A stretch of DNA of 30,878 bases from a virus, in the UHGV virus genome UHGV-1533542; one strand, given 5' to 3'. The notes under the pieces are model-generated. The model saw nothing but the letters and a program-made list of their open reading frames with translations. It was not told the origin of the DNA and did no database searches. Both the position numbers and the translations under genes were made by a program. Shown here piece by piece: positions 6,930 to 26,807 of this stretch. The first letter of the stretch is position 1. Each line of letters starts with the position of its first letter.

Positions 6930-7033
6930 GTTAAATCTCCAGATAGTCGCAGCACCCGTTGCGCCGCATATCTGGTTATTCTATTACCTGAAAAACCATA
7001 TATGGATAGATAACCCATAAATACGAAAAGATA

Positions 7034-7048
7034 TTACCTTTCAGGTGA
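7034..7048. promoter_or_regulatory. ATTACC-N5-GGTAAT-type dyad, copy a (TTACC-TTTCA-GGTGA; one mismatch)
   Basis: Inverted repeat in the divergent intergenic region between tailspike start (6929) and the 85-aa gene; a partial copy (TTACCTGAAA) at about 6984. Confidence 0.5.
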
Positions 7049-7085
7049 TTTGCAAAACGTGCTGGATAGCAAACAAATTATTTGA

Positions 7086-7105
7086 TACTGTATATTTATA
7101 CAGTT
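7086..7105. promoter_or_regulatory. LexA (SOS) box
   Basis: TACTGTATATTTATACAGTT: CTGT-N8-ACAG with AT-rich spacer, 18/20 identical to E. coli consensus TACTGTATATATATACAGTA; 20 bp upstream of ATG 7125. Confidence 0.75.
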
Positions 7106-7124: not shown

Positions 7125-7382
7125 ATGCAGCAGTATCACTATCCACTGGAAGACGGATTTACCGAAAGGATTCACACGCCGGGAGGCGTCAGGTCACTGG
7201 TGGAGGGATCGCACTTGATGAAATTACTCCGGGATCTCGATAAGGATGGATTTAATGTCGATGGCCCACTTGCCGAACTGACTGCACTGATTAACTACGT
7301 CACCAGCTCACAGATGTCTATGCAGGATCTGCAAACACATCTCGACTATTGTGCCGAACAATTACGAAAACAAACCCGGTAA
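7125..7382 (+). CDS. 85-aa protein preceded by a LexA box; paralogous to C-terminal domain of the Bro-N protein (antirepressor candidate)
   Basis: ATG with SD GGAGAAG; ORF opens at TTG 7107 but ATG 7125 preferred; by-eye alignment with residues ~148-228 of the 8528-9214 protein (HLMKLLRDLDKDGFNVDGPLAELT...DLQTHLDY vs LLMNLLNQLQEDGHDVSGAAAELT...DIQTHAEY). Confidence 0.65.
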   Translation: MQQYHYPLEDGFTERIHTPGGVRSLVEGSHLMKLLRDLDKDGFNVDGPLAELTALINYVTSSQMSMQDLQTHLDYCAEQLRKQTR

Positions 7383-7389
7383 ATTTAAA

Positions 7390-7405
7390 GGCCGCAAGAG
7401 CGGCC
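7390..7405. terminator. bidirectional hairpin terminator between convergent genes
   Basis: GGCCGC-AAGA-GCGGCC stem-loop with A/T-rich flanks, between the stop at 7382 (+) and the stop at 7405 (-). Confidence 0.5.
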
Positions 7406-8133
7406 TATCGTTTCGCTTTGTGCTCATCCCAGCACGTTTTGCACCATGCCATTAAGCCGTCCGCATTTTGATTATTAGGGTAAAAGCTGGTTCGTTTTCT
7501 GCGGACATTACAAATTGGGCACCACTTCATATGGCGTGTATTCTTTGGGCCATCGAGACACCTTGCACACCACTTAGTCAATCCATCTGGATTTTTTGAC
7601 GATTTCCTGAATTTTTCATATGGAAGGTTTATTCTGCATCGCAAGCACTGCTTGCTACCACTTGAAACTCTGTTAGCTGATTCTTCTTTTGGCGGCGATG
7701 CAGAAGGTATTCTTGCTGGCTCTGATACTGCCTGAGGTGCTTTTTTAGATGACTGAGACGATATGTCATCACCAGGGAATCTTCCATGATATGCCGGACG
7801 CGTTGACACTCCAGGTGGAAGCTCAGCTGTAAACGGCTTTGGCTGAATCAGTTGCCTCTCTTTTGCTAACTCCTGCTGTTTATAATATGTCTGGATTACC
7901 GCACTATCATAAGCAGGAGGTGCGGAAATATTAGGCGCATTACCTCCAGTTTTTTGAAACTGAGTAGAGGTGTGTTCTATCACCTGTGTACGATTAATCG
8001 TTATCTCCCCATCTTCGGTCTTTATCGTTTTGTTATGATTAACGACCGTACGATCAGAGATCTTAGTCTTGTTCTGGTTGATAACGTAAATAATCACCGC
8101 AACCACACCAACAACTATCCAGAAAACTTCCAT
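7405..8133 (-). CDS. membrane-anchored protein with C-terminal tandem zinc ribbons, function unknown
   Basis: SD GAGGA 6 nt before ATG; N-terminal TM helix (VFWIVVGVVAVIIYVI); Pro/Ser-rich linker; C-terminal Cys cluster CLRC...WCARC...WCPIC...WCKTC (two CxxC-N~20-CxxC units). Confidence 0.7.
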   Translation of the reverse strand: MEVFWIVVGVVAVIIYVINQNKTKISDRTVVNHNKTIKTEDGEITINRTQVIEHTSTQFQKTGGNAPNISAPPAYDSAVIQTYYKQQELAKERQLIQPKPFTAELPPGVSTRPAYHGRFPGDDISSQSSKKAPQAVSEPARIPSASPPKEESANRVSSGSKQCLRCRINLPYEKFRKSSKNPDGLTKWCARCLDGPKNTRHMKWCPICNVRRKRTSFYPNNQNADGLMAWCKTCWDEHKAKR

Positions 8134-8153
8134 TGCTTTTCCTCACAATAACA

Positions 8154-8168
8154 TTACCTTAAAGGTAA
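8154..8168. promoter_or_regulatory. ATTACC-N5-GGTAAT dyad, copy b (perfect; TTACC-TTAAA-GGTAA)
   Basis: Perfect inverted repeat about 20 bp upstream of the RBS of minus-strand gene 7405-8133, in the divergent region shared with the Bro-N gene; weaker related site CTTGCTTTCAGGTGA at 8172-8186. Confidence 0.55.
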
Positions 8169-8246
8169 TATCTTGCTTTCAGGTGATCAAGCGTTAAACG
8201 CAATCAACCAAATACGGTTGATTTTAATATTTCTTCGCGTTTATCA

Positions 8247-8261
8247 TTACCTTTGCGGTAA
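8247..8261. promoter_or_regulatory. ATTACC-N5-GGTAAT dyad, copy b3 (TTACC-TTTGC-GGTAA)
   Basis: Perfect TTACC-N5-GGTAA inside the long 5' region of the Bro-N gene. Confidence 0.5.
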
Positions 8262-8527
8262 ATTTACATCGCACTCCTCTTGTGCCATAGTAATCGGGCA
8301 CTGGATTTTGCCAGTGCCGGGATTGGCGTCCCGGGTTACTACAGAGGCACATATGCCGCATAAGCGGTTTTTTTATGTGTAAAGCGCACCTATTCTATGG
8401 TGGGCTGTGTGGGGGCACCGAAAGGTGCGCCGGGTCCTTTGTAGCCGGTTACGCCAACCCTGCACAGTTCACCACCAACCGATTGGCGTCGGTAGTGGTG
8501 ATTAACCTAACTACAAAGGTGATCACT

Positions 8528-9214
8528 ATGACTGCTAACGTAACCCCATCTGTTTTTCATTTTGAATCAGAGGCAACCATTCGAGCCATTGTTATTGATG
8601 GAAATCCTTGGTTTGTTGCCAAAGACGTTATTAAAGCTCTTCAACTGACAAACCCCACTATGTCAATAAAATCTCTTGATGATGATGAAAGGGCTAAATT
8701 TAACTTAGGCCGTCAAGGCGAAACCAATATTATCAACGAGTCAGGCCTCTACACACTGATCCTCCGCTGCCGCGATGCGGTGACACCAGGCACTATCCCC
8801 TACCGCTTTCGTAAATGGGTTACAGGTGAGGTTCTTCCTCAGATCCGCCGCACCGGAAGTTACATTAAAAACTCGCTCCCGCAGGAAGAACGCATAAAGA
8901 TGGTTGCCGACCAGGTAGCCAACGCCACGGCGTCAGCAGTAATGCAGGCGATGAAGATAGAGAACAAAACCTACAGTGCCCCGCTGAAGCCCGGCTACCG
9001 CAGCCTGATTCACTCGCCGTCTGGTGTTCTCGGCCTGACGGAGAACTCACTGCTGATGAATCTGCTGAACCAGTTACAGGAAGACGGGCACGACGTATCG
9101 GGCGCGGCGGCAGAGCTGACCACCATGTTCTGCTACATCGTCGGTGTGAGCAAATGCCTGCGTGATATCCAGACGCACGCGGAGTACATCAACGACAAAG
9201 CAGGATTCTTCTGA
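8528..9214 (+). CDS. Bro-N domain protein (phage antirepressor-like) with C-terminal domain paralogous to the 85-aa protein
   Basis: ATG 8528 with SD AAGGTG chosen over the RBS-less ATG 8375; N-terminal Bro-N signature (FHFESEATIRAIVIDGNPWFVAKDVIKALQL); hairpin with weak T-tract after stop. Confidence 0.85.
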   Translation: MTANVTPSVFHFESEATIRAIVIDGNPWFVAKDVIKALQLTNPTMSIKSLDDDERAKFNLGRQGETNIINESGLYTLILRCRDAVTPGTIPYRFRKWVTGEVLPQIRRTGSYIKNSLPQEERIKMVADQVANATASAVMQAMKIENKTYSAPLKPGYRSLIHSPSGVLGLTENSLLMNLLNQLQEDGHDVSGAAAELTTMFCYIVGVSKCLRDIQTHAEYINDKAGFF

Positions 9215-9223
9215 CAGAACGGC

Positions 9224-9247
9224 GGCACATGGATGTGCCTTTAAATA
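9224..9247 (+). terminator. possible intrinsic terminator after the Bro-N gene
   Basis: GGCACA-TGGA-TGTGCC hairpin followed by TTTAAATAATT; T-tract is weak. Confidence 0.35.
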
Positions 9248-9287
9248 ATTCTGTACAGATTGCAGACTGTTGGTGAATAGCGTACTA

Positions 9288-9302
9288 TTACCTCAAGGGT
9301 AA
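9288..9302. promoter_or_regulatory. ATTACC-N5-GGTAAT dyad, copy d (TTACC-TCAAG-GGTAA)
   Basis: Perfect TTACC-N5-GGTAA about 60 bp upstream of the small ORF / toxin-like gene pair. Confidence 0.5.
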
Positions 9303-9362
9303 ACGGATTGGTTTCATTTTTATTAATCCGTGTAATGAACTTATGAGATATGAGGTAATGTC

Positions 9363-9542
9363 ATGCGAAACGAAAAATTGCAGATGCGTAGAGCGCAAGC
9401 TGCCGCAAGACGTTCTTTCAATGGAAGCGTAGAGTGCGTAAAAGTTACTATGACAAAAGATCACGCAAGTCGCGTATCCCGCGCTTTCTTTGATTCTCGT
9501 AACAATAAGGAAAATTATGAGTTCGTCTGCGTCGCAGAATGA
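9363..9542 (+). CDS. small ORF (59 aa) upstream of and overlapping the toxin-like gene; antitoxin candidate
   Basis: ATG 9363 preceded by SD GAGG (gaggtaatgtcATG); basic 59-aa product; overlaps next gene start by 26 nt in another frame; below the ORF-track size cutoff; coding status unproven. Confidence 0.3.
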   Translation: MRNEKLQMRRAQAAARRSFNGSVECVKVTMTKDHASRVSRAFFDSRNNKENYEFVCVAE

Positions 9543-10062
9543 TAAAAATCAAATTGTCAGATATAAGGGTCGAGTATTGCATACGCAAAATTTCTCGGCC
9601 CTTTGTGCATCTGATCTTGAGCTGAAGAAAGTATCTGATGCCTTTACCCAGTATTGGAAAACGGGATACCATCCATCTCTTGGTAAAGATGCTGCATTTG
9701 CTCGTCCGACAGAAATGCTTAAACTAAATGTCAGGCATACTCATGTCGATAACCAAGACTATATTCCAGAAGATAGTGATAAAAAACACACTGGTAAAAA
9801 ATCATCTTGGGATGCATGGAAAAATATAGCGTCTGTGCAAGTAAAATGCATACCAACAAGTGATTGCTTTTTAGTTTATTCGGTAAATCACAATCGTGAT
9901 GCGCTGGTTATGTTTTTTGTTGACGCAGATGCCCACAACATAACTGAGCAAGAAGAGTTTAAAGAGGCAGCAATCACTATCAGTTATCAATTCTTTGAGA
10001 AAACAAAAACAGAACCAATGCCTTTAGAAGAAGATCTTTTTTCTGATAAATGGAAGGAATAA
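9517..10062 (+). CDS. 181-aa protein with YafO-like toxin features (candidate mRNA-interferase-type toxin)
   Basis: ATG 9517 with SD AAGGA (ORF opens at TTG 9490); by-eye similarity to my recollection of E. coli YafO (F.QY.K.G..P..GKDA, L.V.HTHV, F/HLVY...AL....D..H); strong terminator follows. Confidence 0.6.
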   Translation: MSSSASQNDKNQIVRYKGRVLHTQNFSALCASDLELKKVSDAFTQYWKTGYHPSLGKDAAFARPTEMLKLNVRHTHVDNQDYIPEDSDKKHTGKKSSWDAWKNIASVQVKCIPTSDCFLVYSVNHNRDALVMFFVDADAHNITEQEEFKEAAITISYQFFEKTKTEPMPLEEDLFSDKWKE

Positions 10063-26303: not shown

Positions 26304-26393
26304 ATCAATGACTCCGTACGCAATTAAATTATTACCAATTTAACCACATATGATTTATTTATCGTAGATAGTTGACATTTAACGCGCGAATTA

Positions 26394-26408
26394 TTACCTT
26401 TCAGGTAA
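26394..26408. promoter_or_regulatory. ATTACC-N5-GGTAAT dyad, copy c (TTACC-TTTCA-GGTAA)
   Basis: Perfect TTACC-N5-GGTAA 17 bp downstream of a TTGACA hexamer (26372-26377), between the divergent head operon and the plus-strand tRNA unit. Confidence 0.5.
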
Positions 26409-26730
26409 CTAAAGAGTTCATTCCGGTTACTAACCTGACTGGCTTGTCGTTAAATTGAACAGGTGGAGTGAGCTTTTATTTTGAGCAGTACGGCGTATGG
26501 CACATGCGACGATAGCGGTCTGGATACGTTTAAGGGGCACCCTCCCTTGCTCGGGCAAACGAACCAGGTAGCCGGAATGTGCAAGTCGAGCGGTTTTATT
26601 CCGCGCACGGGGATTCACCATCCCGGCGATTCGGTGTGACGCCTCGGAAGAGACGAGGGTACAACGATGAGAGCATTTATGGAGCCGCGACAAAGTGTGG
26701 TGCCTTAACAGGCTAAGTGCTCTCAGCGTT
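26409..26730 (+). other. ~320-nt noncoding, GC-rich region between operator copy c and the tRNA (possible tRNA-precursor leader or sRNA)
   Basis: No ORF longer than about 25 codons with an RBS on the plus strand; several local hairpins; minus-strand ORF 26430-26693 is R/H/C-rich and judged spurious. Confidence 0.2.
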
Positions 26731-26807
26731 GTGGCATTAGCTCAGTTGGACAGAGCAACCGCCTTCTAAGCGGTTGGTCGCAGGTTCGAATCCTGCATGC
26801 CACGCCA
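26731..26807 (+). tRNA. tRNA-Arg (anticodon UCU), phage-encoded
   Basis: Cloverleaf read by eye: acceptor GTGGCAT/ATGCCAC, D-arm GCTC..GAGC, anticodon stem ACCGC/GCGGT with loop CTTCTAA (anticodon TCT), T-arm GCAGG-TTCGAAT-CCTGC, encoded CCA; body close to but distinct from E. coli argU as I recall it. Confidence 0.88.

Follow-up and report, generated by a model that had tools for sequence, protein, structure and literature searches.

What occupies the 394 bp between a divergent minus-strand gene (7405-8133) and the Shine-Dalgarno (SD)-linked ATG at 8528 that opens an antirepressor gene in the virus genome UHGV-1533542? A first-pass annotation of this 30,878-nt stretch of DNA (the window, by which we always mean the whole stretch; the region studied is 8134-8527) had put the gap at about 390 bp, described it as rich in hairpins, and offered two explanations: an attenuator or antisense RNA acting on the antirepressor in the manner of phage P22, or a 51-residue N-terminal extension of the protein from an ATG at 8375. 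We found that the leader is an unannotated cassette of the P1 c4/Gifsy-1 IsrK family, a variant in which the C4 antisense RNA is aimed straight at the SD of the antirepressor, and the cassette implies no new mechanism. In our judgement 8134-8527 very probably serves as the leader for a secondary immunity operon of the immI type, carried by an epsilon15/phiV10-like (Uetakevirus) Escherichia coli prophage, with the antirepressor under IsrK/C4 control. The window is 100% identical to the prophage lying between guaA and yfgI in E. coli 85.0412, and its relatives TL-2011b, phiV10 and ZX5 (91-95% identity) are all epsilon15-like, with phiV10 and ZX5 classified in the genus Uetakevirus. The RefSeq annotation of 8134-8527 lists no RNA.

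A scan of the whole window against Rfam at curated thresholds returned three matches, namely a tRNA, isrK and C4 antisense RNA, the last two being in tandem on the plus strand within 8134-8527 and both above their gathering scores. The elements of the cassette and the gene that it precedes are as follows.

8298-8374, plus strand: IsrK small RNA (Rfam RF01394, 56.7 bits against a gathering score of 50, E = 8.5e-10 over the whole window)
8298-8317, plus strand: IsrK hairpin 1
8318-8334, plus strand: IsrK hairpin 2, which shows a1 in its loop
8323-8329, plus strand: a1 site UUGGCGU, the complement of junction a' in C4 and the counterpart of the annotated a1 of P1
8339-8347, plus strand: b1 site CUACAGAGG, forming 9 bp with the C4 loop b', one of them G.U
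8347-8352 and 8375-8380, plus strand: helix GCACAU/AUGUGU, which brackets the terminator hairpin and U-tract, is possible only in read-through RNA, and holds the ATG at 8375
8356-8374, plus strand: IsrK terminator CCGC-AUAA-GCGG-U7 (4-bp GC stem, tetraloop and U7, from a terminator scan)
8393-8479, plus strand: C4 antisense RNA (Rfam RF01695, 79.5 bits, gathering score 45, with a match that covers model positions 1-87 of 87 and E = 2.9e-14)
8436-8444, plus strand: b' specificity loop CCUUUGUAG (probability of being unpaired 0.76), the perfect complement of 8511-8519
8451-8457, plus strand: a' junction ACGCCAA (probability of being unpaired 0.89), complementary to both copies of UUGGCGU
8483-8489, plus strand: a2 target UUGGCGU, beginning 4 nt past the C4 end, as in P1
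8495-8501, plus strand: GUGGUGA box (GGUGGUGA-like, after a2), complementary to the C4 3' strand UCACCAC (8469-8475)
8511-8519, plus strand: b2 target CUACAAAGG, overlapping the antirepressor SD AAGGUGAUC (8516-8524)
8528-9214, plus strand: antirepressor of 228 residues, with an N-terminal Bro-N domain (Pfam, 7.8e-20) and a C-terminal SPC32H-Ant-like repressor-binding domain

The RNA spanning 8298-8545 had a folding energy of -107.4 kcal/mol (z = -5.2), and none of 200 shuffled sequences was as stable. For C4 the minimum free energy (MFE) structure was identical to the Rfam structure (-45.2 kcal/mol, z = -3.6), comprising a 17-bp outer stem, a GAAA hairpin, a second hairpin carrying loop b' and the single-stranded junction a'; the fold was significant on the plus strand only, the opposite strand giving z = -0.7. 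The 3' end of C4 is tRNA-like (..CACCACCA), and presumably a mature C4 of ~77 nt is excised from its precursor by RNase P, as in P1. IsrK folded at its MFE into three hairpins with b1 in a single-stranded linker. The hairpins singled out by the first-pass annotation thus acquire identities: the perfect 8-bp stem GGCACTGG/CCAGTGCC exists, at 8297-8304/8311-8318 instead of ~8301-8322, and is IsrK hairpin 1; CCGGGA..TCCCGG (8318-8335) is IsrK hairpin 2; CCGC-ATAA-GCGG with its T7 run, which had been placed at ~8358-8375, is terminator-like, lies at 8356-8374 and is the IsrK terminator; and the GAAA-looped stem (8414-8430) is the first hairpin of C4.

The geometry of the pairing sites is that of a C4 system. 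The b2 target begins 28 nt after the start of a2 and ends 8 nt before the AUG at 8528, the same distance as in P1 icd, and the end of b2 lies 6-11 nt ahead of the start codon in 15 of 19 loci. A repeat containing a1/a2, GATTGGCGTC, is present twice in the window. The Rfam c4-a1b1 model (RF03163) scored below threshold here (26.9 bits against 46.7), with the a1 and b1 sites themselves present upstream of C4. We took the pairing energies element by element as duplexes, in place of cofolding, and obtained -13.3 kcal/mol for b':b1, -12.6 for b':b2, -15.6 for a':a1 and -10.3 for a':a2, so that IsrK binds the C4 elements no worse than the leader does. The b':b1 pairing of the window and several other b1 sites contain a G.U pair, which therefore fits plus-strand RNA only.

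The same arrangement recurs widely. We first fetched 15 diverse loci (three further Uetakeviruses, APSE-7, Hafnia yong2, Moraxella Mcat4, Yersinia vB_YpM_44, SfV, phiP27, and several Stx and other lambdoid phages), and in all 15 isrK was followed 18-26 nt later on the same strand by C4 and then by a gene; the isrK-C4 tandem is also present in P1, Gifsy-1 and SW-37. In an 18-locus test set, which includes P1 and a Gifsy-1-like Salmonella phage as additions, there were 17 distinct b' loops, each with a b1 and a b2 of its own to match, and seven distinct a' junction 7-mers, all matched by their own targets. When self complementarity was compared with non-self complementarity across these 18 loci, not one permutation out of 20,000 attained the score seen for loop-b1, loop-b2, junction-a1 or junction-a2. 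Close relatives repeat the pattern on a small scale, as TL-2011b, phiV10 and ZX5 each lack one base relative to the window in b1, in b' and in b2 (CUAAAAGG, CCUUUUAG and CUAAAAGG, respectively). IsrK hairpins 1 and 2 also covary in the 18 loci. The check by folding and covariation across related phages that had been suggested at first pass therefore came out in favor of an RNA, with structure above chance and pairing elements that covary. The genes behind the cassette in other loci encode Rha-type or small proteins, and because this cargo varies between loci the RNA cassette is portable.

Two further helices were found by comparing loci. RNAalifold on the 18-sequence leader alignment recovered IsrK hairpins 1 and 2 only, as indels disturb the alignment near the terminator, and the terminator and its surroundings were analyzed by helix searches in each locus with permutation tests. 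A short terminator is present in all loci (4-5 bp GC stem, U6-U8), and a helix of 5-8 bp bracketing it was found in 17 of 18 loci, in at least eight sequence versions. The weak stem, together with a covarying helix that needs read-through RNA, suggests that the IsrK terminator is leaky. Downstream, the helix between the GUGGUGA box and the C4 3' strand is present in all 19 loci examined for it (7-11 bp in 18 of them and 5 bp in P1). Compensatory changes occur in Mcat4, JLK-2012 and P1, and the observed self-complementarity was reached by only 2 of 20,000 permutations. From its position the box would permit an alternative hairpin with a2 in its loop and the C4 stem opened, which is likely the basis of the two conformers seen in Gifsy-1.

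Upstream of IsrK, the two operator dyads reported at first pass are both present, one perfect and one imperfect, and the second adjoins a promoter.

8153-8169, no strand assigned: operator-like dyad 1, ATTACCTTAAAGGTAAT, a perfect 8+1+8 palindrome of the TTACC-N5-GGTAA class, 20-36 bp upstream of the divergent minus-strand gene
8246-8262, no strand assigned: operator-like dyad 2, ATTACCTTTGCGGTAAA, imperfect, adjoining the -35 of the isrK promoter
8263-8291, plus strand: promoter PisrK, with -35 TTTACA, a 17-bp spacer with TG extension, and -10 CATAGT
3805, 7034, 8154, 8247, 9288, 26394, 29587 and 29605: TTACC-N5-GGTAA dyads in the window
L020 5042, 10296, 10358, 11070, 11118, 11455, 13401 and 13463: TTACC-N5-GGTAA dyads in the rest of the prophage

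In a consensus scan the -35/-10 pair of PisrK scored 9 of 12 and had the TG extension, and its transcription start would be G8298. In all 19 related loci the -10-like hexamer ended exactly 6 nt before position 1 of the Rfam isrK model; these loci take in the annotated P1c4 (former P51b) promoter of P1, as well as Gifsy-1, for which the published mutant numbering agrees with +1 being isrK position 1. A dyad stands next to the PisrK -35 in every Uetakevirus examined (phiV10, Tyrion, phiv142-3 and ZX5), its half-sites conserved and its center variable. The dyad motif occurs five times in the window against 0.15 expected; allowing up to one mismatch, there are eight in the window and eight in the remaining prophage, a total of 16 against ~1.5 expected. 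Two of these lie in the repressor/cro intergenic region (L020 11070 and 11118) and two beside the repressor gene, and as judged from the motif the dyads appear to resemble operators of the main repressor of this prophage and not Mnt/Arc sites. The repressor itself matches SPC32H Rep (PDB 5d50_A, E = 4e-42 in a PDB sequence search), a protein which binds palindromic sites as a tetramer (PMC9638917), and the dyad at 8246-8262 is the presumed site of this SPC32H-Rep-like repressor. The dyads are spread over the whole prophage, often paired 18-93 bp apart, which suggests a dispersed P1-like regulon of a Rep-type tetrameric repressor. No LexA box was found in a search of 8134-8527, so SOS would have no direct action on the isrK promoter.

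Between the two dyads lies the inverted repeat AATCAACC/GGTTGATT, which the first-pass annotation had seen correctly but located at 8210-8232, its arms being at 8202-8209/8216-8223. We rejected this hairpin (8202-8223) as a terminator or regulator, two of its eight pairs being broken by one-sided, uncompensated changes in 2013C_3963 (97% identical) and TL-2011b (95%). Together with the T-rich run after it, the hairpin has a terminator-like score, and a conserved structure is unsupported.

The mechanism that we propose starts from the observed identity and fold of the two RNAs, their complementarities and geometry, the three-way covariation, and the promoter and terminator positions; that C4 is excised and blocks translation, that IsrK lifts the repression and that the dyad is bound by the repressor are points carried over from experiments with P1/P7 and Gifsy-1. 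The sigma-70 promoter at 8263-8291, abutted by the operator at 8246-8262, would fire from ~8298, and the weak 4-bp/U7 terminator would halt most transcripts to give the 77-nt IsrK carrying a1 and b1. Transcripts that read through would continue into C4 (8393-8479) and the antirepressor gene. The long stem of C4 would display loop b' and junction a', and these would pair with b2 (8511-8519) and a2 (8483-8489), covering the SD so that ribosome loading is blocked and no antirepressor is made; transcriptional polarity probably follows the translational block. IsrK, which bears the same two target sequences, would compete for C4, be it in cis while still part of the precursor or in trans after release as a small RNA, and translation of the antirepressor would then be set by the IsrK/C4 ratio.

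Among the closest described systems is immI of P1/P7, which has an RNA of the same Rfam C4 family and the same element order at nearly the same spacing as the window. The P1 GenBank record annotates the promoter P1c4, a1, b1, the 77-nt c4, a2 4 nt after c4, and b2, which follows ~29 nt later and leaves 8 nt to the start of icd, and the P1 leader scored 35 bits with the isrK model and 51 bits with the c4-a1b1 model. In both systems the cargo is an antirepressor, the promoter stands beside an operator of the main repressor, and specificity comes from short loops that covary with their targets; such loop-target covariation is the basis of P1/P7 heteroimmunity. The differences are that the antirepressor of the window is the first open reading frame (ORF) after b2, with no icd-like small ORF there, so that C4 would target its own SD; that the operator is a palindrome of the SPC32H Rep-type family, whereas P1 has an asymmetric C1 operator; and that this phage is a podovirus integrated at guaA, whereas P1 is a plasmid prophage. 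The antirepressor is also unrelated in sequence to P1 Ant1 (E = 0.11).

Gifsy-1 (Hershko-Shalev et al. 2016, PMC4825925) likewise has isrK, a C4-family RNA and an antirepressor-type gene, with b2 abutting the SD of the cargo. Its locus comprises isrK (79 bits), C4 (69 bits), anrP and isrJ, and since it matches the C4 model, the published "orf45/STnc1160" is a C4-family RNA. Numbered from isrK position 1, G28 and G31 of Gifsy-1 lie in a1, and C159 and C162 in a'. The compensatory pairs G28A/C162U and G31A/C159U restore the inactive state (PMC4825925), and because the mutated positions fall exactly on a1:a' pairs, these mutants test a1:a' pairing directly. It was further reported that the IsrK terminator is read through, that the long RNA is translationally silent with STnc1160 as its processed product, and that IsrK in trans raises anrP translation >100-fold (PMC4825925); IsrK and STnc1160 (i.e., C4) are abundant in Gifsy-1 lysogens (PMC7067206). 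Read-through was shown for the Gifsy-1 terminator, whereas that of the window is likened to it from sequence. The window differs from Gifsy-1 in having no orf45 (there is no AUGA overlap with the gene start), no isrJ and no neighboring antQ, and its antirepressor has no similarity to AnrP (E = 4.3).

APSE-7, a Hamiltonella phage of another genus, has the same architecture and a Bro-N cargo, and its GenBank record already annotates isrK, C4 with a'/b', and the BRO-N gene in that order. Its a' and b' are different (GUCUCAA and CCUUGUUAG), and the labels a' and b' in the record are swapped relative to P1 usage. A further parallel is with the epsilon15-like SPC32H Rep/Ant pair, as the prophage of the window has a Rep-homologous repressor and, in the regulated protein, an Ant-homologous domain. 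Residues 147-223 of the antirepressor match SPC32H Ant (PDB 5d50_E, E = 1.1e-13), the protein also matches PHROG families annotated as anti-repressor Ant, and it is 82% identical to ORF4 of ZX5, overexpression of which lowered lysogeny and reduced prophage titres ~1000-fold.

Several points weigh against IsrK/C4 control as we propose it. An operator that fully closed the promoter in the lysogen would leave the source of C4 for immunity unexplained; the consensus scan also gave a weaker upstream promoter candidate at 8218-8247. RNAcofold of C4 with IsrK or with the leader yielded only -1 to -2 kcal/mol and thus no net gain; we regard this outcome as uninformative rather than contrary, because nested models cannot represent loop-loop pairing. 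The isrK score of 56.7 bits lies near the threshold of 50, with relatives at 60-81 bits. The low score arises because the loop of hairpin 1 (8305-8310) is inverted: the window has AUUUUG, whose exact reverse complement, CAAAAU, is found in three E. coli prophages of 97-98% identity, and in most other phages the loop is GCAAAAUC, which is related to CAAAAU. This loop was inverted by a template switch. The published coding role of the C4 region in Gifsy-1 (orf45-anrP coupling) cannot operate here, and the mechanism may differ between members of the family. Finally, the case for this prophage is made from its nucleotide sequence.

The alternative that survives best has C4 acting mainly as P4 CI RNA does, so that its pairing with the a/b sites, instead of keeping ribosomes off, makes transcripts end early, at the IsrK terminator or, through Rho, within the leader. 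In P4 immunity (seqA, the CI RNA (seqB) and seqC), which we liken to the cassette by description, a small RNA processed from the leader pairs with repeated sites that flank it on either side in the same transcript; it is described as causing premature transcription termination and it controls replication genes. The covarying helix that brackets the IsrK terminator speaks for this view, and in P1 the translational block at icd leads to Rho-dependent termination before ant. The Gifsy-1 authors cite P4 as a structural homolog, likening IsrK to P4 seqA and STnc1160 to P4 CI RNA, and IsrK in trans raised anrP transcription 8-fold and translation 139-fold (PMC4825925). Against it, the placement of b2 at the SD in 15 of 19 loci is required for a translational block and unnecessary for control of termination. 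As the principal mode of action we consider it rather unlikely, and the two modes are not mutually exclusive.

A less probable course is the one described for Gifsy-1 itself, in which the C4 region is translated (orf45, "Ash"), the antirepressor is coupled to it, and IsrK opens the ribosome-binding site of the small ORF. In Gifsy-1, SPA-tagged orf45 was detected and mutations of its start or stop lowered anrP activation (PMC4825925), and its AUG (A107) coincides with the AUG conserved at positions 5-7 of the C4 model, corresponding to 8397 in the window. The corresponding frame in the window, however, has 15 codons and closes at a UAG (8442-8444) inside b', 83 nt before the AUG at 8528, so coupling of the orf45 type cannot apply here and C4 must therefore act on the antirepressor's own ribosome-binding site, the SD overlapped by b2. 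Among the loci the ORF from this AUG may be as short as 3 or as long as 229 codons, and it is not always in the same frame relative to the gene, and the Gifsy-1 authors themselves noted orf45 to be conserved in nucleotides and its amino-acid sequence variable (PMC4825925). We think it improbable that the antirepressor of this prophage is controlled in this way.

The coding explanation, in which the gene begins at ATG 8375 and the hairpins lie within the coding sequence of a 279-residue protein, fares much worse. The frame is indeed open from 8375 through 9214, and that ATG is in frame with the one at 8528. It stands directly after the U7 run without an SD, and as an AUG it has a probability of being unpaired of 0.10 within the covarying GCACAU/AUGUGU helix; in other loci the codon at its position is ATT, ATC, GTG or GCG. 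In phiV10, Tyrion, phiv142-3 and APSE-7 the frame of the extension closes 12-30 nt before the SD-linked ATG is reached, TL-2011b has two 1-nt deletions within the stretch, and Pfam recognizes only Bro-N in the extended protein, from residue 69 onward. The covarying helix and the closed frames in relatives refute the 51-residue extension, which we rejected, and translation from 8375 seems to us extremely unlikely. Equally remote is a P22-type immI with Mnt/Arc operators and an opposite-strand sar RNA: P22 and the window do share secondary immunity, an antirepressor under operators plus RNA, and operator-like dyads upstream of the antirepressor gene, but sar is made from the opposite strand across the ant ribosome-binding site, whereas here the RNAs are on the same strand and upstream of the gene, in keeping with their plus-strand-only fold and G.U pairs; a consensus scan of 7900-9500 found no minus-strand promoter, so that a sar-like transcript is not indicated; and Pfam found no Arc/Mnt-like ribbon-helix-helix domain in neighboring ORFs, the dyads belonging to a family that also occupies the repressor/cro switch of the same prophage. 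The first-pass suggestion of antisense-RNA or attenuator control was therefore right in kind, with operators, a terminator hairpin and an antisense RNA all present, and wrong in its model, which was P22; the right one is P1/P7 c4 and Gifsy-1 IsrK.

If IsrK/C4 control holds, Uetakevirus prophages of E. coli bear a P1-like RNA immunity layer on a second antirepressor. It would also join the Gifsy-1 IsrK experiments and the P1 c4 model in one cassette whose cargo genes are interchangeable. The 17 natural loop/target specificities form a set usable for probing RNA-based heteroimmunity; CUAGAAAGG is an example of an altered form of the b2 target CUACAAAGG.

The cassette also corrects the annotation of a widespread prophage region, as the RNA appears in several phage records under the name "Ash family protein" or joined to the gene that follows. 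The Pfam family PF10554 (Phage_ASH) looks like a translated isrK+C4 module (window 8280-8560; SfV, L012 973-1254; L006, L010, L011, L015 and L016; L026 466-579). In SfV orf37 the Phage_ASH domain (residues 117-210) maps on isrK, C4 and the leader, and a stitched translation of the window region, with two stops and one frameshift, still scored 29.6 bits against the Phage_ASH cutoff of 26. The coding sequences annotated as "Ash family protein" in the Hafnia yong2 and ZX5 records span the RNA genes, with an internal promoter and terminator. PF10554 is likely a spurious protein family.

The neighborhood holds a second antirepressor candidate. A small ORF at 7125-7382 (85 residues) matches SPC32H Ant (PDB 5d50_E) with E = 4e-47 and ~90% of aligned residues identical by eye, and its product and the C-terminal domain of the Bro-N antirepressor share 42% identity. 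Upstream of it, a repressor dyad at 7033-7049 is followed by a LexA box close to consensus, TACTGTATATTTATACAGTT, at 7086-7105. By these signals the phage would have two antirepressors, one SOS-gated and one RNA-gated. A two-input induction can be tentatively imagined, in which IsrK/C4 gates the Bro-N-fused Ant while LexA and the phage repressor gate the small Ant (7125-7382): SOS would release the small Ant, which would inactivate Rep and turn on the isrK promoter, and the IsrK decoy would then titrate C4, bringing in the large antirepressor as a feed-forward lock. On this picture, single coordinated indels in b1, b' and b2 (window CCUUUGUAG against phiV10-type CCUUUUAG) would leave phages that are otherwise 95% identical unable to respond to one another's C4. 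In phiV10 the small ant gene lies just 80 bp upstream of isrK.

In the window the small ant and isrK are separated by the minus-strand gene at 7405-8133, which encodes 242 residues with an N-terminal hydrophobic segment, C-terminal Cys-rich repeats and weak matches to endonuclease VII and Lar-like PHROGs. It is probably an inserted moron, because it is absent from this position in phiV10, Tyrion, phiv142-3 and ZX5. Downstream of the antirepressor are the dyad at 9288, a 59-residue ORF (9363-9542) whose PHROG has no known function, and a gene for a YafO-family toxin (9517-10062), and 9288-10062 is possibly a toxin-antitoxin moron under repressor control. Farther away, at 26370-26807, a promoter-like TTGACA site whose -10 region is overlain by a dyad (26394) is followed by ~300 nt without a convincing ORF and by tRNA-Arg(UCU) at 26731-26807, which may represent a repressor-controlled tRNA or non-coding RNA transcript amid the late genes.

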